The notes below the pieces were generated by a model. That model made no database searches and was not told the origin of the DNA. It saw only the letters and a program-made list of their open reading frames with translations. A stretch of 64,000 nt of DNA from an uncultured virus (IMG/VR IMGVR_UViG_3300008113_000015) (taxonomy: Duplodnaviria > Heunggongvirae > Uroviricota > Caudoviricetes), in the IMG/VR virus record IMGVR_UViG_3300008113_000015, positions 1-64,000 of that record. The stretch is one strand, 5' to 3'. A program made the translations under genes and the position numbers. Positions 997 through 50,064 of this stretch are shown piece after piece. Each line of letters begins with the position of its first letter. Positions within the stretch are counted from its first letter, which is position 1.

Positions 997-2239
997 ACTC
1001 TGGTAGATAGTCTAAGATGCTGTTTTTGCGATTGCCTTCGAGCTGTTTTAAAAACTGCACCAAGTCTGGCAAGCGATGACTTTCGTCTGGTTTGTTTTTC
1101 AAGTAGTTTACATAACTCTGTAAATCTTGTACGACCTGTTGCTGGGCAACGTTAGGGTTTCGTATGTTTATTATGGTTTCAGAATCAACAGTATGTTGGT
1201 CAACCCAGTGCTGTAGCTCATCAATAATATGCTGTCTATATTCAATTGGCAACACCGCAGGTCTCAAACATTCTGGCTGATTTAAAAAATTACAACTTTC
1301 CACAGTGATGTTGTGATTCCAGGCATATTCATAAATTTCCAACATGTGTCCAACTGTGAGTGCAGTGGGGGTAATTCTAAATTGGGTAAGCCATTCATGT
1401 TCTTTAGCCACAGCAAGCCAACGATTCATGGTCTCAAACACTGTAGACAAGCTCACAGGGTAACGAACGTAATCATTAACGTGTTTGAAACTTTCTACGC
1501 TCATTCCAAGATTTACGCCCTGGAACTGTTTCAGCAAATCAACAACATCGTCGCGCCAGACACCAAGGTTGGTTGTAAATCCAACAGTGGCGGTGCGATG
1601 CAAGCCGGCGTGAATCAACGCTTCAAGAATAATCTTAAACGCAGGAGTGATCAGTGTTTCGCCGCCAATGAAATGTAGATACTGTATGTGCGGACTAGAA
1701 ACAAGGGCGTCAACTAGTCGTTGCACCAATACAGGATCGTCGGTCCAATTGGCAGGTACATTATCGCTGACTATTCCAATCTTTTTAAATTCAGCAGCCA
1801 GACGAGAACTCGAATGAGGGCTACAAAACACACAGGCGCCGTTGCAATAATTGCCAAGGTCTATTTGCCAGTCCTGGGGCATTTGTGTGGTTGTAGCACC
1901 TTTGGCAAATTCCTTGGACCAAGGGCTAGATACCAGTGTTTTTTCAAACTGTTCGATACGAACACCTATTTTCAGCAACTGTTTTTGTCGGCCGCTGACT
2001 TTGTTGTGTTGCTCCATCTGTGTGCAGTCAGCACAGCCCACTGGCAATTCACCATTGAGAAACTGTTGCCTGACCGCAGACATTTGATGCTGAAAGAACT
2101 CTGCCGGTGTTGCAGTGCGTATACTGCCAGCAGAATTTCTTTGATCTTTGGTAGCCCAACGACAGTACTCATAGTGGCCAGCATTGTTGATTCTCATATG
2201 CAGCCAAGGGCTAGAACAGAAGTTGGACTTTAAATTCAT
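965..2239 (-). CDS. radical SAM protein with N-terminal Cys-rich (SPASM/twitch-like) domain
   Basis: CNGACVFC (CxxxCxxC), GGE motif, TTN; N-terminal CSSPW...C...CADC. Confidence 0.9.
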   Translation of the reverse strand: MNLKSNFCSSPWLHMRINNAGHYEYCRWATKDQRNSAGSIRTATPAEFFQHQMSAVRQQFLNGELPVGCADCTQMEQHNKVSGRQKQLLKIGVRIEQFEKTLVSSPWSKEFAKGATTTQMPQDWQIDLGNYCNGACVFCSPHSSSRLAAEFKKIGIVSDNVPANWTDDPVLVQRLVDALVSSPHIQYLHFIGGETLITPAFKIILEALIHAGLHRTATVGFTTNLGVWRDDVVDLLKQFQGVNLGMSVESFKHVNDYVRYPVSLSTVFETMNRWLAVAKEHEWLTQFRITPTALTVGHMLEIYEYAWNHNITVESCNFLNQPECLRPAVLPIEYRQHIIDELQHWVDQHTVDSETIINIRNPNVAQQQVVQDLQSYVNYLKNKPDESHRLPDLVQFLKQLEGNRKNSILDYLPEYEQLFRSAGY

Positions 2240-2862
2240 CAGGTTCGGTTTTCTACAATCTTATCAGCAAGACCCATATTTACTGCTTCTTGTGCTGACA
2301 GGAAAGTATCGAACTTCATGAGCTGGTAAAACTCGTCGTAGGTCTTGCCTGCGGTGTTGTGTTTGACATACAACTCAGTGAGTCGACGATTTACCCGCTG
2401 ACTTTCTTCAAACGCACGTTTTGAGTCTTCAAATTGCAGTTCTTGCACATGCACTGAACCACGAGTGCCCGGGGTACCAGAACTAACACGATGAATCATA
2501 GTGCGGCTTTCAGGCAGTACAAATCGTTTGCCCGCGGCACCTGCTTGTGCTAAAAATGAACCCATAGAGCAAGCTTGACCAATCACAATGGTATGCACAT
2601 CAGGACGAATAAACTGCATGGTATCGTAGATGGCCAGGCCGGCTGACACTGACCCACCGGGCGAGTTGATGTAAAAACTGATGTCTTTGTCAGGGTCTTC
2701 GGCTTCTAAAAACAGCAACTGGGCCACAATCAAACTGGCAGTATGCTCGTTTACATCTGTGTCCAACATCACCACGCGGTCTCGTAGCAAGCGACTGTAG
2801 ATGTCGTAGCTACGCTCGCCTTTTGAGGTTTGTTCAACAACCATGGGGATCAAACTGGGCAT
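2239..2862 (-). CDS. clpP: ATP-dependent Clp protease proteolytic subunit
   Basis: [40 protein letters not shown]; start corrected to the ATG after the AGGAG RBS. Confidence 0.95.
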
Positions 2863-2923
2863 AAATTCTCCTATGTTAAGTAATGCGTTAGGATAAGTAT
2901 AACATATTCTTCCGGAAAACACA

Positions 2924-4468
2924 ATGAGAGACCTGCTCAATATACTCGACTCAGTACTCAATGAGGTAACAATTTCCAAGGCCAAATATGGTCCTGGCAC
3001 CCAGTTCTCGCTCAGTGGTGGCGCGGCTGGGCAAAAAATGCTGGCCATGATGCAACAGCAGGAATTTGACCCTACTCCTCCCTTAACCATGCAAGATGTC
3101 AACAGCATGAGCAACGAAGAAATTCTTGGTTTGCCCACGGTCACTGTGGGTTCAGGTCCTGATGGTTATGTGTTTTCCAACAACGCTGGTCAAATGCTGT
3201 TGGTAACCGGCAGTGCCAGTGCTATTGGTCCCATGTTCAATGCCTACAGTGGTGCAGGTGCTCAGTCCGACGACGCCGAAGGTAAGATTGCTAACCGTGG
3301 AGAAACTTCTGAAGGTATTTTAGGAGCTGCCATGTTTGCCAAGTTCACCAAACGTGAACCCAATGAAGAAATTGGCACAGTAACACCGCAAGATATTAAC
3401 ACAGTGCTTGACAATCTCAAACAAACCGGCGAAGATCAATACGAAGTCGAAGTACAAGATTTTGATAATAAACATGCTGACTCAGTGACCTTTGTGTTGA
3501 GACTGAAGTCAGGACCTTATGCAGATTTGATGGATCCCGCCAAACGCGGACTGTTGGCCAACGAGTTTTCCAGTGCCGCAGGCTACGTCAACAGTGCCGA
3601 TGCCGAACGCTACAGTCGTTACTTTTATATCAACGGCAAAGCAGATCAGATTGTGATCATGGCCGACGGAGTCACTGGTGAAAAAACACAAAAGACTGAT
3701 GTCTGGGTCTACGTCACAGATGAAAATGGGCAGCCGCGCAAACTACGACTCAACACCAGTTTGAAAGTTGGGGGTATTGGACAGTTTGGTCAGGTAGGTG
3801 GAGACAGCGAAGAAACACAACAGACCTTGTGGAACTACTTTGGTATTGATGTTGATCCGGCCTTGAAGAATTTTGGAACCAAGGTCAAAAAAGATCCACG
3901 ACAAGCTTTCAAAAATGTGTACCAATATGCAGCCAAACAAATTGACGATCAACTGCAAGGTGCTGATGCTGACCAAGAAGCTGCTGTGATCAACAACATT
4001 GCACAGGGTATCACACACTTTGCTACCTTGGGCGATCCTCGAGTCGAACTGGTAGACTTCAACAAAGGTGGATTCAAAATTCTAAGGTTCAACAATCTGG
4101 TGCAAAAATTGCAAACTGTTAATCTAGCAGCCAGTTATGTAGACGACAAAAAATGGCCTGAGGTTTCAATTCACGAACGTGGCAATCCCAAAAACAAACT
4201 GCTTACCGTGCGCATGAAAATTGAAAACAAGCCCACTAAGAAAAACCCTGATGCACTGTACATCCGCAACTATATTGAAAAAGAATCTTTGTTGGAAAAG
4301 CTCACTGAATATCGCAGAGCTAGTTGGGACGAAGCCGGTGGTGTAAGTACAGATGATTTAGATCAACAGTTGAAAAAACCACGACTGCGTGGTCCTGGCG
4401 CCAAAGCAGCACAACGATCAGTGGAACCCAAGACTGACGTTGAGACTTTGGGGAGGAAAAAACGATGA
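2924..4468 (+). CDS. hypothetical protein, possible PD-(D/E)XK nuclease-like domain; putative virion/internal protein
   Basis: NRGETSEG...KTDV...SLK motif spacing; TAAGTA upstream. Confidence 0.45.
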
Positions 4469-5315: not shown

Positions 5316-5888
5316 CTAGCGAGACAACTGGCTGATGTGGTCACAGATACCTAGTTTGAGTGCTTCTTCGGCACTCAAGTAAACATCATGTGGGGGCAAT
5401 AGGTACTGTTTGATTTCGTCTTCACTCAGTCCGGTACAACTCACATAGTGATTGACCATGCGTGTTTGTGTGAGTCCAAACTCTTTCATTGTGGCCAACA
5501 GTTCATGATGTTTACCATCACTGCCCCAGGCATACTGATGACTCATGATTGACGTGTTGGGAGTAAGTGTTCTGCGCCCTGCACTTCCTGCCAAAAAGAT
5601 CAGCAATCCTGCTGATGCAATCTGTCCCAGACCCACTGTTTTGATAGCTATGTTGGAACTGCGCATCACATCAATCAAGGCAAATGCGGCACTCATGTCT
5701 CCACCTTCGCTACAGATCATCAACAGTAGTTCTTTTTTCTTTTTCTTGGTCACAAAGTTTTCGTACAAAATCCATTCTACTATGGGCGCGATACTGTCTT
5801 GTGTGACTTCGTCCATGAACACATACATGCCGTTGTCATGCAGTGCTTCACTGTGGTTGGTTTCTGGTACGTTGGTGTCTTGAGCCAT
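5316..5888 (-). CDS. second, divergent ClpP-family protease
   Basis: ICSEGG, IASAG (Ser), MSHQ (His), PHDVYLSAEEA (Asp). Confidence 0.85.
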   Translation of the reverse strand: MAQDTNVPETNHSEALHDNGMYVFMDEVTQDSIAPIVEWILYENFVTKKKKKELLLMICSEGGDMSAAFALIDVMRSSNIAIKTVGLGQIASAGLLIFLAGSAGRRTLTPNTSIMSHQYAWGSDGKHHELLATMKEFGLTQTRMVNHYVSCTGLSEDEIKQYLLPPHDVYLSAEEALKLGICDHISQLSR

Positions 5889-8008: not shown

Positions 8009-8245
8009 TTAACCCCAATCTTTTTTGTCGCCATTGGCTTCATTGTCGCGATAACCTGCTGTATAGGCCGCGAGCTCTGATGGGGTCATCTGCTCCATGT
8101 CAATGCGACGACTTCTGTGAGTGTCGCCTGCAAAGTAATGAGGCCAGTAGTCACGACCGTAGTAGCTGTCTGCTACGCCGCGATCGTATGGACTGCCATG
8201 GCGTTGATCATAATGACCAGATTGTGTAGTTGTTTCTGCCAACAT
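8009..8245 (-). CDS. hypothetical early protein
   Basis: RHGSPYDRGVADSYYGR...YTAGY; start corrected to the ATG downstream of the promoter. Confidence 0.7.
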   Translation of the reverse strand: MLAETTTQSGHYDQRHGSPYDRGVADSYYGRDYWPHYFAGDTHRSRRIDMEQMTPSELAAYTAGYRDNEANGDKKDWG

Positions 8246-8272
8246 TTTGTGTTCCTTTGTGTCTATGTGAGT

Positions 8273-8303: not shown

Positions 8304-8327
8304 AAAAGAAAAGCCCCTTGCGGGGCT
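8304..8327 (-). terminator. intrinsic terminator
   Basis: AGCCCC-GCAA-GGGGCT plus TTTCTTTT. Confidence 0.85.
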
Positions 8328-8348
8328 CTAAAATGTAGTACTTGAGTA

Positions 8349-8624
8349 TTACTTTTTAGATGTGGTAGCTGTGTAGGCTTTCATGATGCCTTCACCAAAT
8401 TTGGTGTAGTCAAATTTCATAGCGTCTTGTGTGGCCTTGACCATTTCTGTGGTCAATGTGGTAAATGTGTCCATGCTCACTTTGGTGGCCTTTTTGGTGT
8501 AGTCAGCTTGAGCATCAATGAACTTGATCATTGCGTCTTTGGCTGTTTCATTTTGAACAAAAGTATTCACGAAAGTCTTTTTACCGGTTTGTACGGTGTC
8601 GATGATTGCGTCTGCTGTAAACAT
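8349..8624 (-). CDS. phasin-like (PHA granule-associated) protein
   Basis: 91-aa amphipathic helical Ala/Thr/Lys-rich protein; own promoter, AGGAG RBS and terminator; family call is inference. Confidence 0.5.
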   Translation of the reverse strand: MFTADAIIDTVQTGKKTFVNTFVQNETAKDAMIKFIDAQADYTKKATKVSMDTFTTLTTEMVKATQDAMKFDYTKFGEGIMKAYTATTSKK

Positions 8625-8685
8625 GTGTTTCTCCTAATTTAAGCGAGTTTGCTATAGGACCCGGCCTATCCAGCGTCCTATGTTG
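8625..8685 (-). promoter_or_regulatory. ROSE-like structured 5' leader
   Basis: AUAGGAC/GUCCUAU hairpin, then CUCGCU-UAAAUU-AGGAG. Confidence 0.55.
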
Positions 8686-8703
8686 TATTATATATGATAA
8701 TTT

Positions 8704-8718
8704 TGCTGCATTGCAACA
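8704..8718. promoter_or_regulatory. palindromic operator, PhaR-box-like
   Basis: TGCTGC-ATT-GCAACA over the -35 position of the TATAAT (8687-8692) promoter. Confidence 0.5.
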
Positions 8719-8799
8719 TATTTTCAGCACTTTAGTGACCATTCACTAATTTTAAATACATTGGCTGTGTCGATAGTAAATAGTATACAGGAGAACTTT

Positions 8800-9111
8800 A
8801 TGCTAAAAGCAATTTTTGATTGGTTTAAAAAACCCAGCCCTGCGGCACAAGCGCCAGCAGTACAACCAGAAGCTGTGCCCTACAAAGTAGAAGCACCTGC
8901 TCAGGTTGCCCCAGTGATAGAAGCCGCACCTGTTGTGGCCGCACCTGCTGACGTTGGCAAACCTGCAGATGACCGAGTAGAGGCCACTGCCCGACCTGCT
9001 CGCAAGCCCCGAGCCAAGCCAGCGGCAAAACCGGCAGCTGGATCAGCAACAAAACCGGCAGCGATCACAGCAGCCAAAAAGCCCCAAGGCCGCAAGCCAG
9101 CACAAAAATAA
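8800..9111 (+). CDS. Ala/Pro/Lys-rich protein with AAKP-type histone-like tail
   Basis: RAKPAAKPAAGSATKPAA; TAAATA at 8777-8782 and AGGAG RBS. Confidence 0.7.
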   Translation: MLKAIFDWFKKPSPAAQAPAVQPEAVPYKVEAPAQVAPVIEAAPVVAAPADVGKPADDRVEATARPARKPRAKPAAKPAAGSATKPAAITAAKKPQGRKPAQK

Positions 9112-9136
9112 AAAAAGCCCCAGAAGGGGCTTTTTT
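9111..9136. terminator. bidirectional intrinsic terminator
   Basis: AAAAAAGCCCC-AGAA-GGGGCTTTTTT between convergent genes. Confidence 0.9.
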
Positions 9137-9137
9137 A

Positions 9138-9425
9138 TTAAGTCAACATCCTGACCAAACCCACAGTGTCAATAGTGGTCAGCAATAGATAGTTAGCCAG
9201 CATGCCAAAACTTCTCCGAGTCCAAGCAGCCCAAGCATAGAGAGCACAGCCAAAGATCCAAACAGGATAAAGAGCAAGAAGCGGAGGATTGGGGACTGTG
9301 AGCGCCATAGTAATACTGCAACCAATACTGATAGCCCAAGCAAGCAACTCAATAGCAAAGCGAATTCTGTTAGACTTAAAGTCATCTCTGATCCAGCTAA
9401 ATGTGTTAAGCAGTATATCGTTCAT
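9138..9425 (-). CDS. small membrane protein
   Basis: About three hydrophobic segments. Confidence 0.7.
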   Translation of the reverse strand: MNDILLNTFSWIRDDFKSNRIRFAIELLAWAISIGCSITMALTVPNPPLLALYPVWIFGCALYAWAAWTRRSFGMLANYLLLTTIDTVGLVRMLT

Positions 9426-17273: not shown

Positions 17274-17732
17274 TCAAGCAGTGTAGCTGATAGCAATGGT
17301 CTTTGGCTTGGCGTCTTCAGGAACTTCACGTGTTAGGTGTATGTTCAAGATGCCCAGTTCAAGATGCGCATTGCTGATCTCCACGTGGTCAGCTAATTGA
17401 AATTCTCTACGAAAACTTCTTTCACTGATGCCTTTGTGCAGATATTTTGCAGTGGCGTCTTCATTGTCCACAGTTTCGCGGCTGTGTTTGCCTTCGATGA
17501 TCAAGACTTTTTTGTCCTTGGTCACTGAAAGATTGTCGTGCCCAAAGCCGGCTACGGCCACGCTGATCATGTACTCGTCATCATTGATTTGTACAATATC
17601 GTAGGGTGGGTAGTTGGTGTTGCCTTGTTGCGCATTCAATCGCATTAGTTCATCAAACATTGAATCAAAACCGATACCAAATTTGTGAATTGCGGGAATG
17701 TCGAAAGAACGAAGGGTGAGAGTTTTTGTCAT
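17274..17732 (-). CDS. small heat shock protein (Hsp20/IbpA family)
   Basis: GIGFD, NYPPYDI, AVAGF, YLHKGISERSFRREF, GILNIHL. Confidence 0.95.
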   Translation of the reverse strand: MTKTLTLRSFDIPAIHKFGIGFDSMFDELMRLNAQQGNTNYPPYDIVQINDDEYMISVAVAGFGHDNLSVTKDKKVLIIEGKHSRETVDNEDATAKYLHKGISERSFRREFQLADHVEISNAHLELGILNIHLTREVPEDAKPKTIAISYTA

Positions 17733-17805
17733 TTGTTTTCTCCTTTATTAAGCAAGATGACTTTTGAAATGTAGCCCGACCATCGGCACTACAAACATAT
17801 TTATA
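17733..17805 (-). promoter_or_regulatory. TATAAATA late-type promoter plus ROSE-like leader
   Basis: TATAAATA at 17798-17805; UGUAGU-G-CCGA/UCGG-GCUACA hairpin; CUUGCU-UAAUAA-AGGAG. Confidence 0.65.
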
Positions 17806-17824
17806 CAGGAAATCTCAACTCTTG

Positions 17825-18043
17825 TCAAGATTTTTCGATATTTTTTATTTCGTAATCGCATGCAACCCAGGTCATAGCAAAAAGAGTAAAATGCTCTGGG
17901 TGATTTAACCCAAGTCGATATTTTAAGCCTTTGGCAACTTTGGTTGTGTAAGGTATCTTGTAGCGGTTGGCCCAGGCGTTAACTGTATCTTTGAGACTAT
18001 CGAAACTGTCCATGCTTGTGACAATATCAAACTCAATGTACAT
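17825..18043 (-). CDS. hypothetical protein
   Basis: ORF coupled to the rpsU stop. Confidence 0.6.
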   Translation of the reverse strand: MYIEFDIVTSMDSFDSLKDTVNAWANRYKIPYTTKVAKGLKYRLGLNHPEHFTLFAMTWVACDYEIKNIEKS

Positions 18044-18268: not shown

Positions 18269-19456
18269 TCAGAGTTCTTTTGGACTATTTACCAAAGTTT
18301 TGTCAATATCTACGTGTTTAATGCCGTCTGAACGATAACGGCTCAGATTGTACATGTGCGGCAGTAACACACGTTCAAGTTCTGAGTGCAGACCACGAGC
18401 ACCTGTTTTGTTTTTAATGGTACGTTCAGCAATGAGATCCAGACTGTCCTTGGTAAACTCTAGGTCAACATCATCCTGCTTGAACAACCACTGATACTGA
18501 CTCACGTAGTTGTGCTTGACTTCTTGCAGAATACGCACAAGATCTGCTTTATCCAGTTCTTGTAGAGCCACCCAAGTAGGAAAGCGCCCAACAAATTCAG
18601 GAATAAGACCAAATCTCACAAGATCATCGGGGGTCGTTTGATCTAGTTGACCCTTGACATCGTCTGTTATTTTAGCCCCAAATCCAATACTGGTGCCTTT
18701 GATGCGATTTTTTACAATGTTGTCTAGTCCCACAAAGGCACCGCCGGCAATGAACAAGATGTTGGTGGTGTCGATTTCCACAGTTTCTCCTGTGGGATGT
18801 TTGCGTCCGCCTTGTGGAACAATACGACATTTGGTACCTTCTACCAACTTCAGCAAGGCCTGCTGGACACCTTCGCCTGACACATCGCGAGTGATACTGG
18901 CGCTTTCGCTTTTGCGACTGATCTTGTCAATCTCGTCCACAAACACAATACCACGCTGTGTTTTTTCAAGGTCAAATCCCGAAGCGGCATACAGCCTTGA
19001 GATCAAACTTTCCACATCATCGCCCACATAGCCTGCTTCGGTCAGGCTGGTAGCATCAGCAATCACAAAAGGCACATCCAGGTAACGTGCTACTGTGCGG
19101 GCCAGCAAGGTCTTGCCTGATCCTGTGGGTCCAAGCATAAGAATGTTGGCTTTTTCAATTTCGGTATTCTTGTCTTGATTGCCAATGCGTTTATAGTGAT
19201 TGGCAATGGCCACGCTGAGTACCATCTTGGCCGCATCCTGACCGATCACATACTGGTCTAGATGGCGACGAATTTCTCTAGGATCAAGGCTGGGACGAGT
19301 TTCAGTATTTGTTACCGGCTGGTCTACTAGTAAATTTTGACAGAGGTCCACGCACTCATTACAAATTGCAACGCTTTCGCCTACAATTAGTTTAGTCACG
19401 TTGTCTTTGTGTTTGCCGCAAAAACTGCAGGTATCAATAGATTTATTTTCGCTCAT
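18269..19456 (-). CDS. clpX: ATP-dependent Clp protease ATP-binding subunit
   Basis: CSFCGK zinc finger, GPTGSGKT, TEAGYVG, DEIDK, RDVSGEGVQQ, IGF loop, GARGL. Confidence 0.97.
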   Translation of the reverse strand: MSENKSIDTCSFCGKHKDNVTKLIVGESVAICNECVDLCQNLLVDQPVTNTETRPSLDPREIRRHLDQYVIGQDAAKMVLSVAIANHYKRIGNQDKNTEIEKANILMLGPTGSGKTLLARTVARYLDVPFVIADATSLTEAGYVGDDVESLISRLYAASGFDLEKTQRGIVFVDEIDKISRKSESASITRDVSGEGVQQALLKLVEGTKCRIVPQGGRKHPTGETVEIDTTNILFIAGGAFVGLDNIVKNRIKGTSIGFGAKITDDVKGQLDQTTPDDLVRFGLIPEFVGRFPTWVALQELDKADLVRILQEVKHNYVSQYQWLFKQDDVDLEFTKDSLDLIAERTIKNKTGARGLHSELERVLLPHMYNLSRYRSDGIKHVDIDKTLVNSPKEL

Positions 19457-36832: not shown

Positions 36833-37549
36833 TCACATATTTAGCAAATAGTACTGTTCAACTCTGCGCCACCATTCTGAACGATATTTTTCAAATTCTG
36901 CGCCTTCTAACACAAACTCTTGATACTGCGGTTTTCCCACAATGTTGTGGTCCTTGTCAAGATCTGGTTTGACGCACATTAAAACTACGCCTTTTTTGAT
37001 ACGTGTACCATGTAGTTCGTTGTGCGCTTCTGCATAGGCTGCCAACTGCATGAAATAATCTTCAATCCATTCTCGCCGTTTGGGCTTGTTGGTCTGTTTG
37101 TAGTCTAAAATACTTTCGTCATTTAGATGTATACCTGCACCGTCTGTGGTACCTGCGTAAATTCCCGGGAAATACAACGGAACTTCAATGCCCCAAAATT
37201 CATTAACATTTATCAATCCTTTGTTGACAACTTCTTCGGCCATGACATGACTGGGCCAACTAAAGGGATTTGATCCACGCGGAGGCATGGCACCGTCTTT
37301 GATGTACTTTTCTAGATAGGTGTGCATGCGTGTGCCACGGTTGGCAGCTTCGGTGGTAATTTGCTGTGCCTTTTCGTAGCCTACACTTTTACGCCAACGC
37401 TCTAGAATTTGTTTCTTTTCTTCAGACTTGGTTTTGTCTAGTATGGTGGTCACTGAGGGCAGATTTTTGCCATCTGGTGTGGCATAAAAACGTTTGCCTT
37501 CAACAACGACTCGTGGAATGGGTTTGTAGTCAAATTTAGGATTGTACAT
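36833..37549 (-). CDS. PD-(D/E)XK exonuclease
   Basis: PSVTTIL, RGTRMH, E..L...AGTTD, DYK, QLAAY. Confidence 0.85.
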   Translation of the reverse strand: MYNPKFDYKPIPRVVVEGKRFYATPDGKNLPSVTTILDKTKSEEKKQILERWRKSVGYEKAQQITTEAANRGTRMHTYLEKYIKDGAMPPRGSNPFSWPSHVMAEEVVNKGLINVNEFWGIEVPLYFPGIYAGTTDGAGIHLNDESILDYKQTNKPKRREWIEDYFMQLAAYAEAHNELHGTRIKKGVVLMCVKPDLDKDHNIVGKPQYQEFVLEGAEFEKYRSEWWRRVEQYYLLNM

Positions 37550-38918
37550 TGGGAACAAAAATCATGGATTGGTGTAAACTAACGCCTGTGTCAATTTTAT
37601 TGCAAATTGTTGCAAACTGTTCTTGATCAGATTCATTTAGTACATTATACAATCTTTGATTGTACTTTGTAAAGTCCATTTTTGTTTTTTGATCAAAATA
37701 TGCGGTATGATTAAGATATTTTTTCCAGAGTTGATCATTGTCAGGTGCTGTATCTAGTTCGCCAATGGTAGTCACAATAAAATTATAAATGCCGCGCATT
37801 TGATCTGGCCATTGTTTGAAAATTCTATGATCTAAACACTGTTGTAGCTTTTTGGCCAATTCAGGTCTATACCGTTGTGGCAGGGCCTGTACATCAAGAT
37901 GTTCAGTCTGATCTACTAAATTGGCAGCATAATTATGAAATACAAAACCACGCTGTTCGTACCAGTTGCACCAGTAATTCAACCAGTCATCAATGTAGAA
38001 TATGTTGTTGAGACTAAACACAGGACTCACTGCACATTTCCAAATGGGACGCATTACCTTGCGACCCTTTACAATGGTCATTTGATTTTTGTAACTGATC
38101 AAGGTATCTAGATTTCGTTCAATTTTTTCAAATCGTGCAGGCCAACGAATGTAGCTGTAGTTTTCTCCCACCGAGTCTATGCTGAGCAGAATATCCACAC
38201 TTTTGAAACGGCTTAACAATTCCATTAGTTCATCTCTGGGGTTCACTGTCATGGCAGTAGTCAGTCTGAGATTGATTTTTTCAGCGATGCCTTGCTCGCA
38301 CATCCAACTCAATAACTTGGTCATGCCCGGCTGAATCAGTGTTTCGCCACCAATGAAATGCACAAAAAAATGTTGATACCTGTTGTGTTTTTGCATGATA
38401 GCATTGGTTATAAAATCCCAATGCTGCTCGCTGTCGCTGATGTCAGTTTCAAAAAATTCATTGACTACGTTGTTGGTAATTCTAGCAAAGGTACTGCTTT
38501 CAAAAGGACTACAACTACGACAACTGAGATTACACAAATTACTGAATTTGATTCTAACTTCGAACTCTGCTACCTGTTTGCTCTTGATAAAATGTCCCAG
38601 CCGATCCTGCGGCATTTCAACAAAGCTGCGCAGTCGTTCACTTTGTCCACCATTGGTTTCTTCTTTAAGACAGTGCCTGCAAGCATCGGGCCATTGACCC
38701 TGTGCTTGTTGTTGCTTAATTTCAACAAAAGGATCTGAACCTTTGCTGGGCACAAACAATGCCGCATCTAGATTGCAACAGCAGGTCTGAAATATTTGAT
38801 TTTTTGAAAACTCGCTGTGACGAATGTCAAGTGTGACATAGGGTGCTGGGCACAGTGCAGGATGTTCTTGCGCCCAGGCCATGCGTTTGTGCAAGGCCTG
38901 TTGAATGATATCACTCAT
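37536..38918 (-). CDS. radical SAM protein with N-terminal Cys-rich domain
   Basis: CNLSCRSC, GGET, YIRWP. Confidence 0.9.
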   Translation of the reverse strand: MSDIIQQALHKRMAWAQEHPALCPAPYVTLDIRHSEFSKNQIFQTCCCNLDAALFVPSKGSDPFVEIKQQQAQGQWPDACRHCLKEETNGGQSERLRSFVEMPQDRLGHFIKSKQVAEFEVRIKFSNLCNLSCRSCSPFESSTFARITNNVVNEFFETDISDSEQHWDFITNAIMQKHNRYQHFFVHFIGGETLIQPGMTKLLSWMCEQGIAEKINLRLTTAMTVNPRDELMELLSRFKSVDILLSIDSVGENYSYIRWPARFEKIERNLDTLISYKNQMTIVKGRKVMRPIWKCAVSPVFSLNNIFYIDDWLNYWCNWYEQRGFVFHNYAANLVDQTEHLDVQALPQRYRPELAKKLQQCLDHRIFKQWPDQMRGIYNFIVTTIGELDTAPDNDQLWKKYLNHTAYFDQKTKMDFTKYNQRLYNVLNESDQEQFATICNKIDTGVSLHQSMIFVPNVQS

Positions 38919-39235
38919 ACCCTAAAACTTTCCCCACAACCGCAGCGGTCACGCTCATTGGGATTTCGAAATTCAAATCCTTCGTTCAGTCCGTTGCGCA
39001 CAAAATCAATTTCTGTGCCTTGTACATAAGCACAACTTTTTGGATCTATAAAAACTTTGCAGTCAAGACATTCAACACACTGATCTTCAGGCGCTGGAGA
39101 ATCCACATACTCTAGCACATAGGCCAGTCCTGAGCACCCAGTGGTTTTTACACCAATCCGAACACCAACTCCGTGTCCTCTTCGGTTCAATGTTTGTTGT
39201 ATCTTACGAGCAGCTAAGGGAGTTATTGTTATCAT
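38915..39235 (-). CDS. iscA: Fe-S cluster assembly A-type carrier
   Basis: TTGCSGLAY, NPN...CGCGESF; start corrected. Confidence 0.95.
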   Translation of the reverse strand: MITITPLAARKIQQTLNRRGHGVGVRIGVKTTGCSGLAYVLEYVDSPAPEDQCVECLDCKVFIDPKSCAYVQGTEIDFVRNGLNEGFEFRNPNERDRCGCGESFRV

Positions 39236-40223
39236 CTTTTGTACACCATCTTTTGCACACTGTCGGTTGCTTGTCAGTATTCCAAGATTCAACCAAGCGG
39301 TCAAACCAGGCAATAGCCGACTCTACCCCCACTGTAGGGCCATGGTTGCCATGTACATACTCACGTAATTCTGTGTTCCAGACCTGTAGAGCATTATGGT
39401 TGTGATACTGTTGAGGGTTGTGCCCTGTCCAACAACAGGGATACACATATCCATCAGATGCCACATAAACACTGCGTTCACGCACAGCCCAACAGTCAAT
39501 GTTCACTTTTTTGCTGTCTGTGTATTTTGGCATTTCAGTAACCACTTTGACAATTTGATCTTGTATAAATTGATCGTTGACTTGGTCAGGATATTGCCAG
39601 TCAGTTCGTATTGAAAAAATTTTGTTTCCTTTGCGATCGTAACTGGGACCGTTGTTTCGATCTGTTTCGCGTTCTTCTAGCCACATAAATCCTAGGTCCT
39701 TGGCCATTTGATACATTTCAGGTAATTGTGGTCGATTGTGATCAAACACATTGGCCATCCATATTGCCTGACCGCCTGCATCAATAAAAGTTTTAGCATT
39801 GCGTATCACGTTTTCAAACACAGTGTCTTGACGATATAAACTGTGAGTGTCTGACAGACCATCAATGCCAAATATACCAAATACTCTGAGCTTGGCCAAT
39901 CCTCTCCAGAATTCTTTGTCTCGGGCGCCACCGTTGGTGTGCACTCTTATGCTCATGTCCGGGTTGGCCTGTCTCATGTAGGCAATGATATCCAGGGTTT
40001 CTGGATTCATTATTGCGTCGCCAAAGTTACCATTGATGATAGCAATGTGAACCCTACTGAGTCGGGTCAGCGAAAATATTTTTTTAAAATCTTCAAGGCT
40101 GAGATTGGTCTCAGTGTATCCCATGTTATAAGGATATCCTAAAAAATTTCTAGGACAGAAAGAGCATCTAGCGTTACAAAGTGAGCTTAACTCTAGATGC
40201 AAATGATTGATTTCATATTGCAT
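39204..40223 (-). CDS. radical SAM protein with C-terminal SPASM/twitch domain
   Basis: CNARCSFC, GNFGD, HTNG, YPCCW, CKRWC. Confidence 0.9.
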   Translation of the reverse strand: MQYEINHLHLELSSLCNARCSFCPRNFLGYPYNMGYTETNLSLEDFKKIFSLTRLSRVHIAIINGNFGDAIMNPETLDIIAYMRQANPDMSIRVHTNGGARDKEFWRGLAKLRVFGIFGIDGLSDTHSLYRQDTVFENVIRNAKTFIDAGGQAIWMANVFDHNRPQLPEMYQMAKDLGFMWLEERETDRNNGPSYDRKGNKIFSIRTDWQYPDQVNDQFIQDQIVKVVTEMPKYTDSKKVNIDCWAVRERSVYVASDGYVYPCCWTGHNPQQYHNHNALQVWNTELREYVHGNHGPTVGVESAIAWFDRLVESWNTDKQPTVCKRWCTKDDNNNSLSCS

Positions 40224-47015: not shown

Positions 47016-48887
47016 ATGACCAGTCAGATCAACCCAACAGCAATCAATGATCAATATCCTGTGGCTGCCCAGCCCAACAATACCCAAGGATTCAGAGATA
47101 ATTTCGCCGGCACTAAAACTAATTTTGAATATGCCGCAGAAGAAATCACAGAGCTTCAAACCAAATCAATTTTAAACGCTGCCTTGGACAATGGATCTTC
47201 TCTGAGTACACAAAACAACATGTTGGGTGCGCCTTTGATTGGCGCTAAGATACGTAATTTTAGTGCTGATTCAGTGAACATTGCAACCACTTCGGGCCCA
47301 ATTATATTAGATTATAGTCAAGGACATTATCAGCGTATTGCAACCACAGGCAACATTAACTTAGGCTTTAGTAACTTTGCGCCTTCAGGTAGTTTTAGCA
47401 GCATACGAGTACAGGTCATTGTTGATGCTGTTGGCCGTACCATGGCTCTTAGCCCTTACGTAACGCTAGGCACAGACGGCATTCAGGGCTATGCCAGTGG
47501 TACTATTACTTTTGCCGAAGCAGGCACTTATCAATTTGGGTTTACAACATCTGACTCAGGCGCCACTATCACAATTCAGGATTTAAATCGCCCATTGAGT
47601 GATTACACCAATCCTGTGACAATTGCCAGCACCGAGCCTAGTATCAGCATTACCTCAGGTGCGCTGGTAGTTGCTGGCGGTGTTGGCGTTGCTGGTAATC
47701 TTTATGTGGACGGCAACATTGTTGGAAACTTTGTAGCCACCACTCAAACATTTGCCGGTAACTTAACTGGTGGAAATCTATTGACCAGTGGCATAATGAG
47801 TGCCACAGGCAATGTCTCTGGCGGTAACATTAGAACCACAGGGCAAGTTTCAGCCACAGGCAACGTTACTGGAGCTTATATCATCGGTGATGGTAGTCAA
47901 TTGACCAATATCACTGTGTCCGGTGGATCAGCCATTGTCAACGGAACCAGTAATGTAAGAGCAATTGCCAACAGTAATATCACTATTGGAATTGGCGGAT
48001 CAAACGTTGCTGTATGGGCCAACACAGGTGGTTTTGTAACTGGTTTAATCAGCGCCACAGGTAACATCACTGGCGGCAACCTTAGGACTGCTGGACAAGT
48101 TTCAGCCACAGGCAACATCACTGGCGGTAACATTCTAGCAGGTTCGGGAGTTGGAGTTGGCGGCGATGTTGGAGTTGGCGGCATTATATTTGCAAATGGC
48201 AACATCAACACCAACACCTCATTCAACGCTGTTGGCAATATTGTTGGTTCTTATTTCATTGGCAACGGAGCATTTTTATCAGGCCTGTCTAGTACTTCAA
48301 GAATCACAGCAGGTACCACAGAATTGGGCGTTTCTACCCCAAGTGGTAATATTCAGGCAACCGTTGGAGGCACAGCAAACATAGCCGTAATTTCCACGCA
48401 AGGTATAGATATCACTGGAAACGTAACAGCCTCTGCTAACTTAGAAGGTGTTGGTGTCAGTGTCACTGGCAACGTCACTGGTGGCAATCTACGCAGCAAC
48501 GGTTTGATCAGTGCTGCTGGTAACATCACTGGCGGTAACATTGCAGGTACTGGCAATGTATCGTTGGTTGGCAACGTGATTGCTGGAAACTTGACCACTG
48601 GTGCACAAATGGTTGCACTTGGCAACGTCACTGGCGGTAACATTGTTACCAACGGTCAGGTGCGCTCTTTCAACGGTACTGCTGTTTCAGCAGGAGGCAC
48701 AGCTGGAGCAGGATACGTATTTTCAACTACTGCAAACTTTGGTGTATTCTTTGGATCAGGTGCACCAACATTGGCCGCAGCCAAAGGATCATTGTACCTA
48801 CGCAGTGACGGTACTACCACCAACGATCGCATGTACGTAAACACCAATGGCTCTACTACCTGGACCGCAGTAATTACTGCAAGTTAA
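47016..48887 (+). CDS. tail-fibre-like protein with GN(I/V)TGGN repeats
   Basis: YPVA..PNNTQGFRDNF N-terminus; Gly/Asn/Thr repeats; GSGAP..GSLYLR C-terminus. Confidence 0.75.
   Translation: MTSQINPTAINDQYPVAAQPNNTQGFRDNFAGTKTNFEYAAEEITELQTKSILNAALDNGSSLSTQNNMLGAPLIGAKIRNFSADSVNIATTSGPIILDYSQGHYQRIATTGNINLGFSNFAPSGSFSSIRVQVIVDAVGRTMALSPYVTLGTDGIQGYASGTITFAEAGTYQFGFTTSDSGATITIQDLNRPLSDYTNPVTIASTEPSISITSGALVVAGGVGVAGNLYVDGNIVGNFVATTQTFAGNLTGGNLLTSGIMSATGNVSGGNIRTTGQVSATGNVTGAYIIGDGSQLTNITVSGGSAIVNGTSNVRAIANSNITIGIGGSNVAVWANTGGFVTGLISATGNITGGNLRTAGQVSATGNITGGNILAGSGVGVGGDVGVGGIIFANGNINTNTSFNAVGNIVGSYFIGNGAFLSGLSSTSRITAGTTELGVSTPSGNIQATVGGTANIAVISTQGIDITGNVTASANLEGVGVSVTGNVTGGNLRSNGLISAAGNITGGNIAGTGNVSLVGNVIAGNLTTGAQMVALGNVTGGNIVTNGQVRSFNGTAVSAGGTAGAGYVFSTTANFGVFFGSGAPTLAAAKGSLYLRSDGTTTNDRMYVNTNGSTTWTAVITAS
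47750..48660 (+). repeat. intragenic degenerate coding repeats
   Basis: Identical 21-mer CAAGTTTCAGCCACAGGCAAC at 47844 and 48096, plus many degenerate copies. Confidence 0.8.
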
Positions 48888-50064
48888 TCAATTCCCAAAA
48901 TTCAGGGAAAGTACTAGCTAGATCTTGTTGTCGCAACAGATCTAGCTTTTTTGTTGACTCAAGAAATTTGTCCCACTGCTGTGGCTGATTTTCCAAAGGC
49001 ATGTCCATGAAATCCATGATGCTAGTGATTTGCCAGTTGGGCTGTTGTGATTCAAGTTGACTACGTATTGTTTGTTTGACTGTGTCTGGCAGTGCTCGAA
49101 CATTGAGATAGTGTGGATGATGCACCATGTTAAAAAACACAGGAATTTCTCGATCGCAGAAATACTGTTGTATTTGCATCACGTATAAAATGTTCAAAGC
49201 ACACACTGTAACACAGATGTGCATTTTAATGTTGGGGCTGGTTCTGACCAACTGTCGATAACGCAATACGTTCTTTTCAACTGTGCTCCACGTTTCACCA
49301 TATCGAATATAATCAAAGTGTGGTCCAATACCATCTATGCTAATATCAATGTTTACTGATTTAAACTGTTTGATGATATCAATGTACTCAGGATTCCAAA
49401 TGGTACCATTGGTATTGATATGCAACCCTTGATCTCGGCATCGACCGCTGTCAACACTCTGTTGCAAAATATGAAATACTTTGTCCAACAACATAGGCTC
49501 AGCACCGTAGATGTCATAGTACTCTACATCAGTGAACCAGGTTGCTAGATCTGTCCATAGCTGTGTGTTTTCGTCGCTGTAGCTGCTGCGAATTCTGCCC
49601 CAGGAAGCTAGATATTTCTTATAGTCTGGTTCCCATTTTTGAGCTTCAATTTCCCAGTAGTCGCGATACCATTTGCTAGAAACCTCAGGCCAGCATGTTC
49701 TGCAGGCTAAATTGCAGGTGTTACCAGGTTTAAGGTCCACCAGTTGTGGCTTGTGACCTGTGATCACTAGATCTTTAAATTGTTCATTGGCCACTTGTCT
49801 GCGGCTGCTTCTTCCTGCTGCTTCTTCATTCCAGCAAGCACTGCAATTTGGATGTTGGATCCCTTGTTCTAGATCTCGCTTTATCTCATAGCGTGTAGAA
49901 CTGTTCCAAGCCTGTTCCATAGTATGTGTATCAAGAAAAATTTCCTGACCTTCTGGGTCTCGTAGATAAGTTTGACTGTGACAACACAGCAGGCACCGTC
50001 CTGAATTGTGTAATGCAATCCCAGAATCTGCCCAAACACAATATAAACCTTTGTCTTTTTCCAT
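48874..50064 (-). CDS. radical SAM protein with N-terminal Cys-rich domain
   Basis: CNLACRTC, GAEP, NTNG, YIRY. Confidence 0.9.
   Translation of the reverse strand: MEKDKGLYCVWADSGIALHNSGRCLLCCHSQTYLRDPEGQEIFLDTHTMEQAWNSSTRYEIKRDLEQGIQHPNCSACWNEEAAGRSSRRQVANEQFKDLVITGHKPQLVDLKPGNTCNLACRTCWPEVSSKWYRDYWEIEAQKWEPDYKKYLASWGRIRSSYSDENTQLWTDLATWFTDVEYYDIYGAEPMLLDKVFHILQQSVDSGRCRDQGLHINTNGTIWNPEYIDIIKQFKSVNIDISIDGIGPHFDYIRYGETWSTVEKNVLRYRQLVRTSPNIKMHICVTVCALNILYVMQIQQYFCDREIPVFFNMVHHPHYLNVRALPDTVKQTIRSQLESQQPNWQITSIMDFMDMPLENQPQQWDKFLESTKKLDLLRQQDLASTFPEFWELINLQ

Follow-up and report, generated by a model that had tools for sequence, protein, structure and literature searches.

PHB is a major store of carbon and energy in freshwater and soil bacteria. 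Proteins with AAKP/PAKKA-type tails, such as PhaF of Pseudomonas putida and PhaM of C. necator, tether PHB granules to DNA. Phasins have been reported to display chaperone-like activity, and small heat-shock proteins have been reported on PHB granules in E. coli. ROSE RNA thermometers are found before small heat-shock genes and are recognized by a U(U/C)GCU anti-SD sequence that pairs with the SD around a bulged G. To our knowledge, the handling of PHB by phages is essentially unstudied, and the literature searched yielded no report of phasins encoded by phages or of PhaR operators in phage DNA. The closest described control circuits are those of PhaR and phaP1 in C. necator H16 (Ralstonia eutropha), with a degenerate palindrome built on a TGC-RNY-GCA core (PMC12849132), and of PhaR (AniA) and phaP1/phaP2 in S. 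meliloti, with NYGC-RNY-GCRN palindromes in AT-rich flanks (PMC12542648).

Here we describe a divergent pair of small phage genes, ORF A and ORF B, within a 64-kb stretch of DNA from an uncultured virus, the whole of which was analysed and is referred to below as the window. The explanation that we favor combines PhaR-type gating of the ORF A promoter, a ROSE-like leader on the ORF A mRNA, an ORF A product acting on PHB granules and an ORF B that is separate from it; as a whole, we give it a probability of roughly 0.6. Under this explanation, expression of ORF A would be gated twice, once at transcription and once at translation. Positions of the features are collected in Table 1.

Table 1. 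Features of the ORF A/ORF B locus and of the HSP20 leader, in window positions; promoters, hairpins, terminators and operator are predictions.
Feature	Position	Strand	Remarks
Intrinsic terminator 3' of ORF A	8304..8329	minus	stem + T-rich tail
ORF A	8349-8624	minus	91 aa; from open reading frame list
ORF A leader hairpin 2	8631..8647	minus	anti-SD CUCGCU : SD AGGAG (8635-8631), one bulged G
ORF A leader hairpin 1	8654..8681	minus	from predicted mRNA 5' end
ORF A promoter, sigma-70-type	8687..8716	minus	-35 TTGCAA 8716-8711; -10 TATAAT 8692-8687
Candidate PhaR-type operator, TTGCTGCATTGCAACAT	8703..8719	none	contains ORF A -35 (8716-8711)
Conserved palindrome TAGTGA-N4-TCACTA	8733..8748	none	unique in window
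TAAATA, late-type promoter element of ORF B	8777..8782	plus	conserved in relatives
ORF B	ATG 8800, end 9111	plus	103 aa
Bidirectional terminator, ORF B/convergent ORF	9111..9136	both	11-bp stem, 4-nt loop
Twin of ORF A leader	17733..17794	minus	5' of phage HSP20 gene (17277-17732)

The first-pass annotation of this DNA had described a divergent gene pair closed by terminators at both ends, and this layout was confirmed. The terminator stem of ORF A (8329-8310) has eight pairs, five of them G-C, with a 4-nt loop, and lies 20 nt past the stop codon. The arms of the stem beyond ORF B are 100% complementary; because an A-run flanks this stem on one side and a T-run on the other, it was assigned to both directions, and a convergent 95-aa ORF (9138-9425) lies opposite ORF B across it. 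The promoter predicted for ORF A matches the consensus at 10 of 12 positions with a spacer of 18 nt, the position of its -10 element is constant among relatives, and transcription would start about 7 nt past this element. The palindrome TGCTGC-ATT-GCAACA (8704-8718), which had been placed over the -35 element of ORF A, does cover it.

The arms of this palindrome are complementary at five of six positions, and its TGC-N3-GCA core is perfect. Extended to 8703-8719, the site has one mismatch to the C. necator consensus YTKNTGCRNYGCANMAR (PMC12849132). Within the window taken alone, the palindrome is at chance level: the 12-nt palindrome pattern has 4 matches against 2.93 expected, and the 17-nt C. 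necator consensus with at most one mismatch has 1 match against 1.33 expected. Its significance is thus drawn from two sources only, namely that it is conserved across relatives and that it is unique in each genome.

Conservation was assessed on the 64 distinct upstream regions that the window and 80 loci provided. Of these, 42 contain the 15-nt box TGYTGC-N3-GCARCA (33 exact, 9 with one mismatch), always about 25 nt upstream of the -10 element, versus a mean of 0.005 of 64 in shuffled regions. Retention of the operator upstream of homologous genes, which the first-pass annotation had proposed as a check, is thereby seen in these 42 promoters. The central triplet of the box is RNY in 37 of the 42, like the published TGC-RNY-GCA, and 46 of the 64 regions lie within three mismatches of the C. 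necator consensus, a limit taken from PMC12849132. Neither the window nor the 127.6-kb record to which it belongs has a second copy of the box, and each of five complete or near-complete relatives (342-364 kb) has exactly one, 91-97 nt before ORF A.

An intact box is absent from 22 of the 64 regions. Twelve of these have a plain TTGA(T/C)(T/C) -35 element in its place, and several others retain the left arm only. Because the 12 combine an ordinary -35 element with the same -10 element and leader, the box reads as an add-on to the promoter, dispensable for it. The same relatives, in which a TTGAT(T)-type -35 has replaced the box with all else kept, could also be taken to mean that the box is a fossil of a captured bacterial phasin locus, without any regulation now, and that its left arm has been kept as a -35 element (TTGC), which does fall within that arm. 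We consider this quite improbable, since the right arm, which is no part of the -35 element, is still kept in 42 of 64 distinct promoters where shuffles yield 0.005, and since the three central bases are free within RNY, as expected where selection maintains a site bound by a dimer.

The box at the ORF A promoter also occurs in bacteria. Genomes of the genus Polynucleobacter contain two to six exact boxes per 2 Mb, versus none or one for a backward-read control pattern, and some stand just upstream of Phasin_2 genes (three of five in G009, three of six in G012). TGCRNYGCA is present in 34 of 51 Polynucleobacter phasin upstream regions, versus 0.23 in shuffles, and PhaR is present in all five Polynucleobacter-genus genomes tested. 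The phasin promoters of these bacteria consist of the box, 9 nt and TATAAT, and the phage promoter has the same layout with 11 nt. That PhaR binds the Polynucleobacter box would be an extrapolation from what has been described in C. necator and S. meliloti. An all-genome scan for ATGTTGCNNNGCAACAT gave at least 120 matches spread over many phyla; by our own estimate, thousands of chance matches to its 14 specified bases are expected in 596 Gb. No PhaR domain was found in the record of the window or in five complete relatives.

The ORF A promoter is likely under the control of host PhaR, with the box as its candidate operator. This is well supported, because the box fits the PhaR consensus and precedes Polynucleobacter phasin genes, and the phages are without a PhaR of their own; together with the conservation of the box, these points uphold the PhaR-type operator proposed in the first-pass annotation. 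The -35 element lies inside a 15-17-bp palindrome, ATGYTGC-RNY-GCARCAT, the box that phasin promoters of PHB-storing Burkholderiales carry. Host PhaR would occupy the ORF A promoter while the cell offers no free PHB granule surface, and the formation of granules would titrate it away.

A second conserved palindrome stands upstream of ORF A (Table 1). Its AGTG-N6-CACT form was found in 42 of the 64 distinct upstream regions, and TAGTGA-N4-TCACTA occurs at one site per genome in all four complete relatives searched; it is not enriched in Polynucleobacter. Its presence shows that further factors may bind here, and one may ask whether the first box, too, is the operator of some other regulator of phage or host, a mere lookalike of the PhaR box on a gene unrelated to PHB. 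The TGC-N3-GCA core is short, the consensus match is at chance level in the window and the host searches point to no particular bacterium, all of which would suit such a regulator. It is nevertheless improbable to us, as the likeness exceeds the core and takes in the arms ATGYTGC/GCARCAT and the RNY center (37 of 42), the position of the box relative to the -10 element equals that on Polynucleobacter phasin promoters, and a phage regulator with one site in 350 kb for one 91-aa gene would be less economical than host PhaR. As to the second palindrome itself, a LacI-type factor was considered from its GTGA-N4-TCAC geometry and rejected, there being no LacI HTH in the 127.6-kb record and no conservation of the four central bases. 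Both this palindrome and the ROSE-like leader had been missed in the first-pass annotation.

The 66-nt leader of ORF A has a minimum free energy of -17.7 kcal/mol (z = -2.78). Across 60 leaders, 92.0% of 942 cells are paired, and 84 cells are changed on both sides versus 25 in shuffles; none of 500 shuffles reaches the observed values, and the paired share falls to 55% or less when the pairing partners are slid. Changes on both sides were seen at 7 of the 11 pairs of hairpin 1. In hairpin 2, 95.3% of cells are paired in the 60 leaders, with one pair appearing as C-G in 30 and as U-G in 26. The motif CTYGCTW...RGGA was found in 53 of the 64 ORF A upstream regions. From this covariation, the structure probably sequesters the SD.

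A covariance model built from the 60 ORF A leaders had a sole other match in the 64 kb, the leader of the phage HSP20 gene (27.9 bits, E 0.0019). The assignment of that gene to HSP20 has an E of 3.2e-16, and its leader sequence comprises a hairpin followed by CTTGCTTAATAAAGGAG. When compared with Rfam ROSE_3 (RF02523), the ORF A leader aligned over model positions 1-69 of 69 with 24.1 bits (E 0.016), which is far under the gathering score of 43. Rfam gave no match over the whole window at E ≤ 0.05, and for the HSP20 leader it gave a weak 'freshwater-2' match, which at 20.7 bits stays well below the gathering score (49.9). The ROSE-like arrangement is supported because its pairs covary and because a small heat-shock gene of the phage has it too. 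The translational gate would accordingly be formed by a leader of about 60 nt with a 5'-terminal hairpin and a CUYGCU:AGGAG hairpin around a bulged G. For the leader to act as an RNA thermometer, the chances may be put at not quite even.

In a clade of uncultured freshwater jumbo phages, ORF A is a genuine small gene under strong conservation. Homologues were found in 1356 clusters at the 90% identity level (E ≤ 0.01) and in 149 clusters at the 50% identity level (E ≤ 0.001); the best 120 of the 1356 are 81-100% identical, on contigs of up to 360 kb. The family is almost confined to viral contigs, and tblastn confirmed the gene in 102 of 107 viral stretches. ORF A has no membership in Pfam, PHROG or NCBIfam, and the INPHARED phage records returned no match to it or to the DNA. 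Among the long matches from the representative search, P0221 is a tandem duplication of the ORF A domain, P0260 with GAF repeats and P0280 with a 9-fold repeat were discarded as spurious, and P0267, a LacI HTH joined to an ORF A-like C-terminus, is probably a chimeric call.

The AlphaFold2 model of ORF A (mean pLDDT 86.2) contains helices at residues 2-22, 26-70 and 73-88. All three are amphipathic, with hydrophobic moments of 0.36-0.40 versus 0.19-0.20 in shuffles, and the model and moments thus bear out the original description of the product as an amphipathic helical protein. Its designation as a phasin fared less well. The ORF A of the window has no match to Phasin_2 (PF09361) even at E ≤ 10. 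Among 63 family members, Phasin_2 is the commonest Pfam match (15 at E ≤ 0.1), always sub-threshold and at best 20.0 bits against the Pfam gathering cut-off of 24.9, and of the five matches at E ≤ 0.02, four share one register. When the family alignment was compared with 51 Polynucleobacter phasins, hhalign gave probabilities of 7.1% and 3.8%, and HMM searches in both directions gave at most 12.3 bits; homology between the two was not found. The nearest Pfam-bearing ESM Atlas clusters are Phasin_2 (0.87), PHB_acc (0.86) and PHA_synth_III_E (0.84), which, as scores below 0.9, count as leads only; the Phasin_2 label belongs to 13% of the members of its cluster. The solved phasin 5IP0_A ranks 16th of 48,161 chains against the ORF A model (Z 7.5, rmsd 2.0 Å over 70 residues), within 1 Z unit of dozens of unrelated helical hairpins, and helical bundles, according to a caution issued with the structure comparison, commonly give Z values below about 13. 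With Foldseek, the model matched no PDB entry at E ≤ 0.001. A sequence-profile search of the PDB returned designed helical bundles only (best E 0.00018), which were set aside as compositional matches. The comparison of 8349-8624 with phasin families that had been suggested is therefore negative at the profile level (hhalign 4-7%) and yields a fold match, 5IP0, tied with helical hairpins; the phasin designation is weakly supported, with sub-threshold Phasin_2 scores recurring in the family and no match in the window's own protein.

Because its regulation and the weak sequence signals suggest it, we tentatively propose that ORF A acts on the PHB granule surface, where it could serve as a coat, displace host phasins or aid mobilisation. 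The conservation of ORF A (81-100% in the best 120 clusters), unlike that of fast-evolving phasins, hints at a specific protein partner. ORF A could also serve chiefly in stress, assisting or partnering HSP20 and being made once the RNA leader opens, with the PhaR box as an input of carbon status and no coating of PHB granules. Pointing this way are the HSP20 gene, whose leader is the sole further copy within the 64 kb, the ClpX and two ClpP-like genes that the phage also encodes, and the combination of a conservation far above that of usual phasins with the failure of phasin homology at the profile level. We nonetheless hold a mainly stress-related function to be rather unlikely, as the recurrent weak signals all point towards PHA-granule proteins and the box elsewhere goes with phasin genes; moreover, stress and granule roles are compatible with each other. 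Besides any action on granules, ORF A may work alongside the sHSP on hydrophobic surfaces.

The 103-aa ORF B product has a tail that reads ...KPRAKPAAKPAAGSATKPAA..., as first reported and here confirmed from the translation. An N-terminal amphipathic helix of 10-12 residues is followed by the motif APYKVE and by a basic tail of Ala, Pro and Lys, with an A+P+K fraction of 0.57 in the window's protein; tails such as KKPAVKKPAVKKP are seen among relatives. The N-terminus of 39 relatives is an amphipathic helix in 28 and a transmembrane-like helix in 11. Searches with ORF B gave no Pfam, PHROG or NCBIfam match and no phasin or PHA-binding domain, and the ESM Atlas gave viral hypothetical clusters only. 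TAAATA was found 22-40 nt 5' of the start codon, mostly at -23 or -24, in all 39 ORF B-type genes, and it appears similar to the T4 late promoter, TATAAATA. Since TAAATA precedes all 39, ORF B would be timed differently from ORF A. The two genes are divergent neighbors at 39 of 64 distinct loci; at the others, an ORF B homologue is 1-2 kb off or absent.

On these sequence features, ORF B is a separate late gene whose predicted product is hydrophobically anchored and carries a polybasic disordered tail, and it is a frequent neighbor of ORF A, not its co-regulated partner. The first-pass annotation had joined both genes in one PHA-granule module, with ORF B tethering granules to DNA through its A/K/P-rich tail in the manner of PhaF or PhaM. 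The basic Ala/Pro/Lys repeats at the end of ORF B and its relatives and the divergent adjacency at 39 of 64 loci speak for such a module. It is very unlikely all the same, because ORF B shows a separate late-type promoter in each of 39 cases, an N-terminal amphipathic or transmembrane-like helix that suggests a membrane and not a granule, no phasin or PHA-binding domain that we could find, and loci at which its homologue is 1-2 kb distant or absent. With a late-type promoter of its own and a hydrophobic anchor, ORF B leaves the tether idea unsupported. In sum, the PhaR-type operator of the earlier reading stands, a phasin nature of ORF A persists only weakly and the ORF A/ORF B granule-DNA tether module is left unsupported.

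Homologous contigs have been binned with Polynucleobacter (one), Haliscomenobacter (three, one MAG) and Sediminibacterium (one), and these are probably mis-binned phage DNA. The G+C content of the window (45.0%) is similar to that of the Polynucleobacter loci (44.2%), which is a weak sign of a Polynucleobacter host. The phage HSP20 protein, used as a host marker, gave no host signal: its matches were phage contigs that had been mis-binned and, at 37-44% identity, Kordiimonas. Four RNA-labelled runs contain only contigs of relatives, in a small share, and since these are contigs and not reads, they reveal neither the start nor the end of a transcript. X19, the sole contig of true metatranscriptomic origin, spans 8580-8682 and marks no transcript start, because it runs on into the promoter of a relative.

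A wider and more speculative reading, against which we would lean, is that freshwater jumbo phages sense PHB through host PhaR, use a ROSE-like switch to sense temperature or stress, and thereby time the production of a granule-remodelling protein. In an abundant, world-wide clade, ORF A would then remodel or mobilise the PHB reserve of the host as fuel for a 350-kb genome, and would share its ROSE-like switch with the sHSP gene. If this is true, no virus-encoded player in PHA granule biology would precede ORF A, which would represent a new class of phage host-state sensing, as well as a concrete case, easy to test, in which a phage borrows a metabolic sensor of its host to time one gene. At 91 residues, it would be a candidate for a viral protein associated with granules and might find use in PHA biotechnology. 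Because such a host would need both PhaR and PHB, the operator would also provide a host clue for very abundant lake jumbo phages that are without a known host. An operator combined with an RNA leader common to the sHSP gene would be an unusual layering for such a small phage gene.

Compared with known systems, ORF A is small and predicted to be all-helical and amphipathic, as phasins are (Phasin_2; A. hydrophila PhaP, 5IP0), and is unlike them in being half as long as Polynucleobacter phasins (173-232 aa) and far more conserved. ORF B has an Ala/Lys/Pro-rich C-terminal tail in common with PhaF and PhaM, a likeness of composition only; unlike those proteins, it is without a phasin or PHA-binding N-domain, has a short anchor and the conserved APYKVE motif instead, and bears its own late-type promoter. 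As in ROSE thermometers, an anti-SD of the U(U/C)GCU type is paired with AGGAG in the last hairpin of the ORF A leader, leaving a G bulged out, and the twin leader precedes a phage HSP20 gene. Unlike ROSE_3, the ORF A leader has two hairpins only and stands on a non-heat-shock gene that also bears a PhaR-type box.

For the box itself, the S. meliloti system offers the same form of palindrome around the -35 element, and sites such as CTCTGTTGCACTGCGGCAGAA in Table 3 of PMC12542648 are similar to the phage box; S. meliloti is an alphaproteobacterium, and its phasin promoters have two boxes each. The phage arms, ATGYTGC/GCARCAT, are longer than those of S. meliloti and are shared with Polynucleobacter. 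The PhaR-phaP1 system of C. necator H16 (PMC12849132) resembles the phage locus in its palindrome and core, in a box at or next to a sigma-70-type -35 element, in a position suited to steric repression, and in the small amphipathic helical protein that the box serves. The phage locus differs from it in that the gene is phage-borne without PhaR and has a single box versus three C. necator sites. It differs further from phaP1 in that ORF A is no recognisable member of Phasin_2 and in that its predicted RNA leader would add a second layer of control.

The first-pass annotation had described two divergent genes, terminators on both sides, a promoter and a palindrome lying over its -35 element; every one of these features was found in the sequence, and the observation was confirmed as a whole. 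ORF A encodes a predicted three-helix protein and ORF B is its divergent neighbor. Just downstream of ORF A is a further small ORF, of no known family; its promoter (TTGACT, 17 nt, TG-TATAAT; 11/12) matches the consensus better than any other in the region.

Features of the ORF A-ORF B region (window coordinates)
Feature	Position	Strand	Detail
79-aa ORF	8012-8248	-	Tyr/Asp/Gly/Arg-rich
Terminator 3' of ORF A	8329-8310	-	
ORF A	8349-8624	-	91 aa
Leader hairpin 2	8647-8631		CUC-G-CU paired with Shine-Dalgarno (SD) AGGAG, one G bulged
Leader hairpin 1	8681-8654		starts at predicted 5' end
ORF A promoter, sigma-70-type			TTGCAA, 18 nt, TATAAT; 10/12 consensus positions matched
Palindrome TGCTGC-ATT-GCAACA	8704-8718		over -35 of ORF A promoter
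Second palindrome, TAGTGA-N4-TCACTA	8733-8748		between ORF A and ORF B promoters
ORF B	8800-9111	+	103 aa
Terminator ending ORF B and the convergent 95-aa ORF	9111-9136		perfect 11-bp hairpin with A-run and T-run flanks

Judged on the window alone, the palindrome over the -35 is at chance level, with four matches to TGCNNNGCARCA against 2.93 expected, and one match to the Cupriavidus necator 17-nt consensus at up to one mismatch against 1.33 expected. Conservation upstream of homologous genes had been proposed in the first-pass annotation as a test of the operator. Upstream regions of 80 loci and the window were aligned, giving 64 distinct regions, of which 33 have the exact 15-nt box TGYTGC-N3-GCARCA, 9 depart from it at one position, 3 at two and 19 at more. 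The box was thus present within one mismatch in 42/64 regions, and shuffled upstream regions gave 0.005/64. Its arms are fixed and its central triplet is variable (RNY in 37/42), while the distance to the -10 element is constant at ~25 nt in the boxed regions. The 127.6-kb record has a single exact copy of the box, as does each of five complete or near-complete relatives (342-364 kb), where it lies 91-97 nt upstream of ORF A. Among the 22 regions in which the box is not intact, 12 have a plain TTGA(T/C)(T/C) -35 at the same spot and retain the -10 and leader; most of the remaining regions hold the left arm only. The box thus adds to the promoter but is not needed for it. In many relatives, loci L005, L025, L034 and L051 among them, the spacer between box and -10 reads CATAAATA(A/T)TGT, so that a late-type TAAATA abuts the right arm of the box. 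These ORF A promoters may combine a sigma-70-type with a late-type promoter; the spacer of the window's own promoter has no TAAATA.

A second, putative layer of control on ORF A, missed by the first-pass annotation, is the leader at the 5' end of its mRNA. The 60-nt leader has a predicted folding energy of -17.7 kcal/mol (z -2.78). Across 60 distinct leaders, 92.0% of 942 cells were paired and 84 cells showed changes on both sides of a pair, compared to 25 in shuffles; the observed values were reached by 0/500 shuffles, and pairing fell to 55% or less when the partners were slid. In hairpin 1, such changes are seen at 7 of 11 pairs. The Rfam model ROSE_3 matched the ORF A leader over the full length of the model at 24.1 bits (E 0.016), well below its gathering score of 43. 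A covariance model of the ORF A leaders had one other match in the 64-kb window, namely the leader of the phage HSP20 gene (17733-17794; 27.9 bits, E 0.0019), in which the same hairpin is followed by CUUGCUUAA...AGGAG. Thus a ROSE-like leader, predicted to hide the SD, is common to ORF A and the phage small heat-shock gene. The region upstream of HSP20 (17733-17830, minus strand) has a promoter, TTGACA, 17 nt, TATAAATA, that fits both the sigma-70-type and the T4-late-type consensus. The HSP20 leader, a two-hairpin twin of that of ORF A, has in Rfam only a weak match to 'freshwater-2 RNA' (20.7 bits vs 49.9).

ORF A is a genuine gene with a very wide distribution. It matched 1356 clusters (90% identity level) at E<=0.01, and the 120 such clusters listed had 81-100% identity and, in all but one, a length of 89-92 aa; an exhaustive search at E<=0.001 yielded 149 clusters at the 50% identity level. 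A relative is encoded in 102 of 107 candidate viral stretches, from which the 80 loci were retained, and homologues were absent from cultured-phage records. Conservation of ORF A is unusually high, which favors a specific partner over a generic coat. The AlphaFold2 model (mean pLDDT 86.2) consists of helices 2-22, 26-70 and 73-88. Each is amphipathic (hydrophobic moment 0.36-0.40; shuffles 0.19-0.20), which bears out the earlier description of an amphipathic helical protein. In one relative, the 161-aa protein P0221, the ORF A domain is duplicated in tandem within one polypeptide.

The proposal that ORF A is a phasin is weakly supported. The window's protein belongs to no family in Pfam, PHROG or NCBIfam and does not match Phasin_2 even at E<=10, and hhalign of the ORF A family against 51 Polynucleobacter phasins gave probabilities of 7.1% (full-length) and 3.8% (N-terminal 125 residues). 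Phasin_2 is the commonest Pfam match among 63 diverse family members (15/63 at E<=0.1), with a best score of 20.0 bits, below the cut-off of 24.9; of five that reach E<=0.02, four share a register, placing residues ~12-74 on profile positions ~33-98. In structure comparisons, Foldseek returned no match to the ORF A model, and exhaustive structural alignment ranked the solved phasin 5IP0_A 16th of 48,161 (Z 7.5, rmsd 2.0 Å over 70 residues), tied with many helical hairpins. The three nearest Pfam-carrying ESM Atlas clusters are all PHA-related (Phasin_2, 0.87; PHB_acc, 0.86; PHA_synth_III_E, 0.84) and, being below 0.9, count as leads by the standard of the tool; Phasin_2 is assigned to 13% of the members of the nearest. 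That ORF A works like a phasin is therefore treated here as a hypothesis. Regulation, architecture and convergent weak signals make such a function possible, if tentative.

ORF B had been cast as a PhaF/PhaM-like partner tethering granules to DNA. An ORF B-type gene divergently adjoins ORF A in 39/64 distinct loci; elsewhere an ORF B-like match lies 1-2 kb off or is absent. All 39 genes have TAAATA 22-40 nt upstream of the start codon (usually -23 or -24). The element resembles a T4-type late promoter, and this sets the timing of ORF B apart from that of ORF A. ORF B has neither a family nor a named neighbor in Pfam, PHROG, NCBIfam or the ESM Atlas. The proteins are modular, with a hydrophobic N-terminus that forms a short amphipathic helix in 28 of them and a transmembrane-like one in 11, a conserved APYKVE, a polybasic Ala/Pro/Lys tail and, in some, an inserted CGCGRS..G.CVGLHKLT motif. 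At loci L010, L013, L029 and L077 this insert reads CGCGRS.(T/S)G.CVGLHKL(T/S).E.W between APYKVE and the basic tail, and it may form a small metal-binding module. The N-terminus points to an anchor in the membrane rather than the granule, and the tail resembles those of PhaF and PhaM in composition only; together with the separate TAAATA, these features make a tether role unlikely.

The second palindrome has one copy in the window. Its AGTG-N6-CACT form occurs in 42/64 upstream regions, and the palindrome is found once per genome in all four complete relatives searched; it is not enriched in Polynucleobacter (0-2 sites vs 3-8 for a control pattern). The distance separating it from the PhaR-type box is not fixed (23-38 nt), and it abuts the TAAATA of ORF B where the intergenic region is short. 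Outside the window, TAGTGTACCTACACTA occurs twice at G000:C1 (109305-109320 and 109416-109431), the two copies being identical and 111 nt apart; they share the outer arms of this palindrome but not its center, and may be a related operator pair.

The 127.6-kb IMG/VR record, of which the window is the first 64 kb, has a CheckV completeness of 37%. Contigs of close relatives are 300-364 kb, three with direct terminal repeats, and the record is therefore a piece of an uncultured jumbo phage. Replication genes among the large ORFs of the window encode a DnaB-like helicase, primase, exonuclease, a DNA polymerase piece and DNA ligase; the window also encodes both subunits of ribonucleotide reductase, ClpX, two ClpP-like proteins and HSP20 for protein quality control, UvdE, several radical-SAM proteins and a baseplate-wedge-like protein. 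With four radical-SAM genes in 64 kb (965-2239, 37536-38918, 39204-40223 and 48874-50064), clpX at 18269-19456 and ClpP-like genes at 2239-3144 and 5316-5888, the proteostasis and radical-SAM set is unusually rich for a phage fragment. One ORF A homologue lies on a 6-kb contig binned in a Polynucleobacter MAG; other homologue contigs, binned with Haliscomenobacter and Sediminibacterium MAGs, are probably mis-binned phage DNA. G+C content is similar in the window (45.0%), the phage loci (43.2%) and the Polynucleobacter loci (44.2%), which is a weak host clue. A 2026 preprint (10.64898/2026.02.18.706586) reports the first Polynucleobacter phages linked by Hi-C; in its accessible part, no link from these to the present phage clade was found.

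The accessible text on C. necator gives the palindromic PhaR motif as YTKNTGCRNYGCANMAR, counts up to three mismatches as a site, and places PhaR sites of phaP1 beside the -35 and at the transcription start (PMC12849132). For Sinorhizobium meliloti, the accessible text reports that the motif WNWD2NYGCRNYGCRNH2WNW flanks the -35 of both phaP1 and phaP2 and that EMSA on mutated versions of the palindromes confirmed it (PMC12542648). The window site, TTGCTGCATTGCAACAT, departs from the C. necator motif (PMC12849132) at one position, and 46/64 relatives fall within three mismatches. Polynucleobacter was chosen as the test genus because of the MAG-binned homologue contig, and Phasin_2 genes were present in all 31 genomes of the set. 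Many of its main phasin genes are preceded by ATGTTGC-N3-GCAACAT, 9 nt and TATAAT, a layout matching that of the phage ORF A promoter, with a gap from box to -10 of 9 nt versus 11 nt. At paralogous phasin genes the box is often doubled, with one copy upstream of the -35 and the other immediately downstream of the -10, as described for C. necator. TGCRNYGCA was found upstream of 20/28 main and 14/23 paralogous genes, compared to 0.23 of 51 upstream regions in shuffles. The exact 15-nt box numbers 2-6 per 2-Mb genome compared to 0-1 for a backward-read control pattern, and stands just upstream of Phasin_2 genes in 3/5 cases in genome G009 and 3/6 in G012; other boxes in these genomes include two within the gidB and atpI coding sequences and one before an OsmC-like gene. 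The promoter of the ATP synthase operon (atpI) in G009 (L136:4005-4030) reads TTGACATATTGCACTGCACACAT, in which a TGC-ACT-GCA core directly follows the -35; this is a hint that energy metabolism may belong to the host PhaR regulon. PhaR is encoded in all five Polynucleobacter genomes tested and was not found in the window's record or its five complete relatives. By analogy, the Polynucleobacter box would be a PhaR site, and host PhaR binding the ORF A promoter would be the simplest reading. The single mismatch to the C. necator motif, conservation in relatives and occurrence on Polynucleobacter phasin promoters uphold the operator named in the first-pass annotation, and 8703-8719 is a well-supported candidate PhaR-type operator (probability about 0.7). 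Our literature search turned up no published description of a phage-encoded phasin or of a phage PhaR operator. As predicted from sequence, this is a known circuit in a new setting, in which the PhaR-type operator of a host PHB sensor and a ROSE-like leader are placed on a phage gene.
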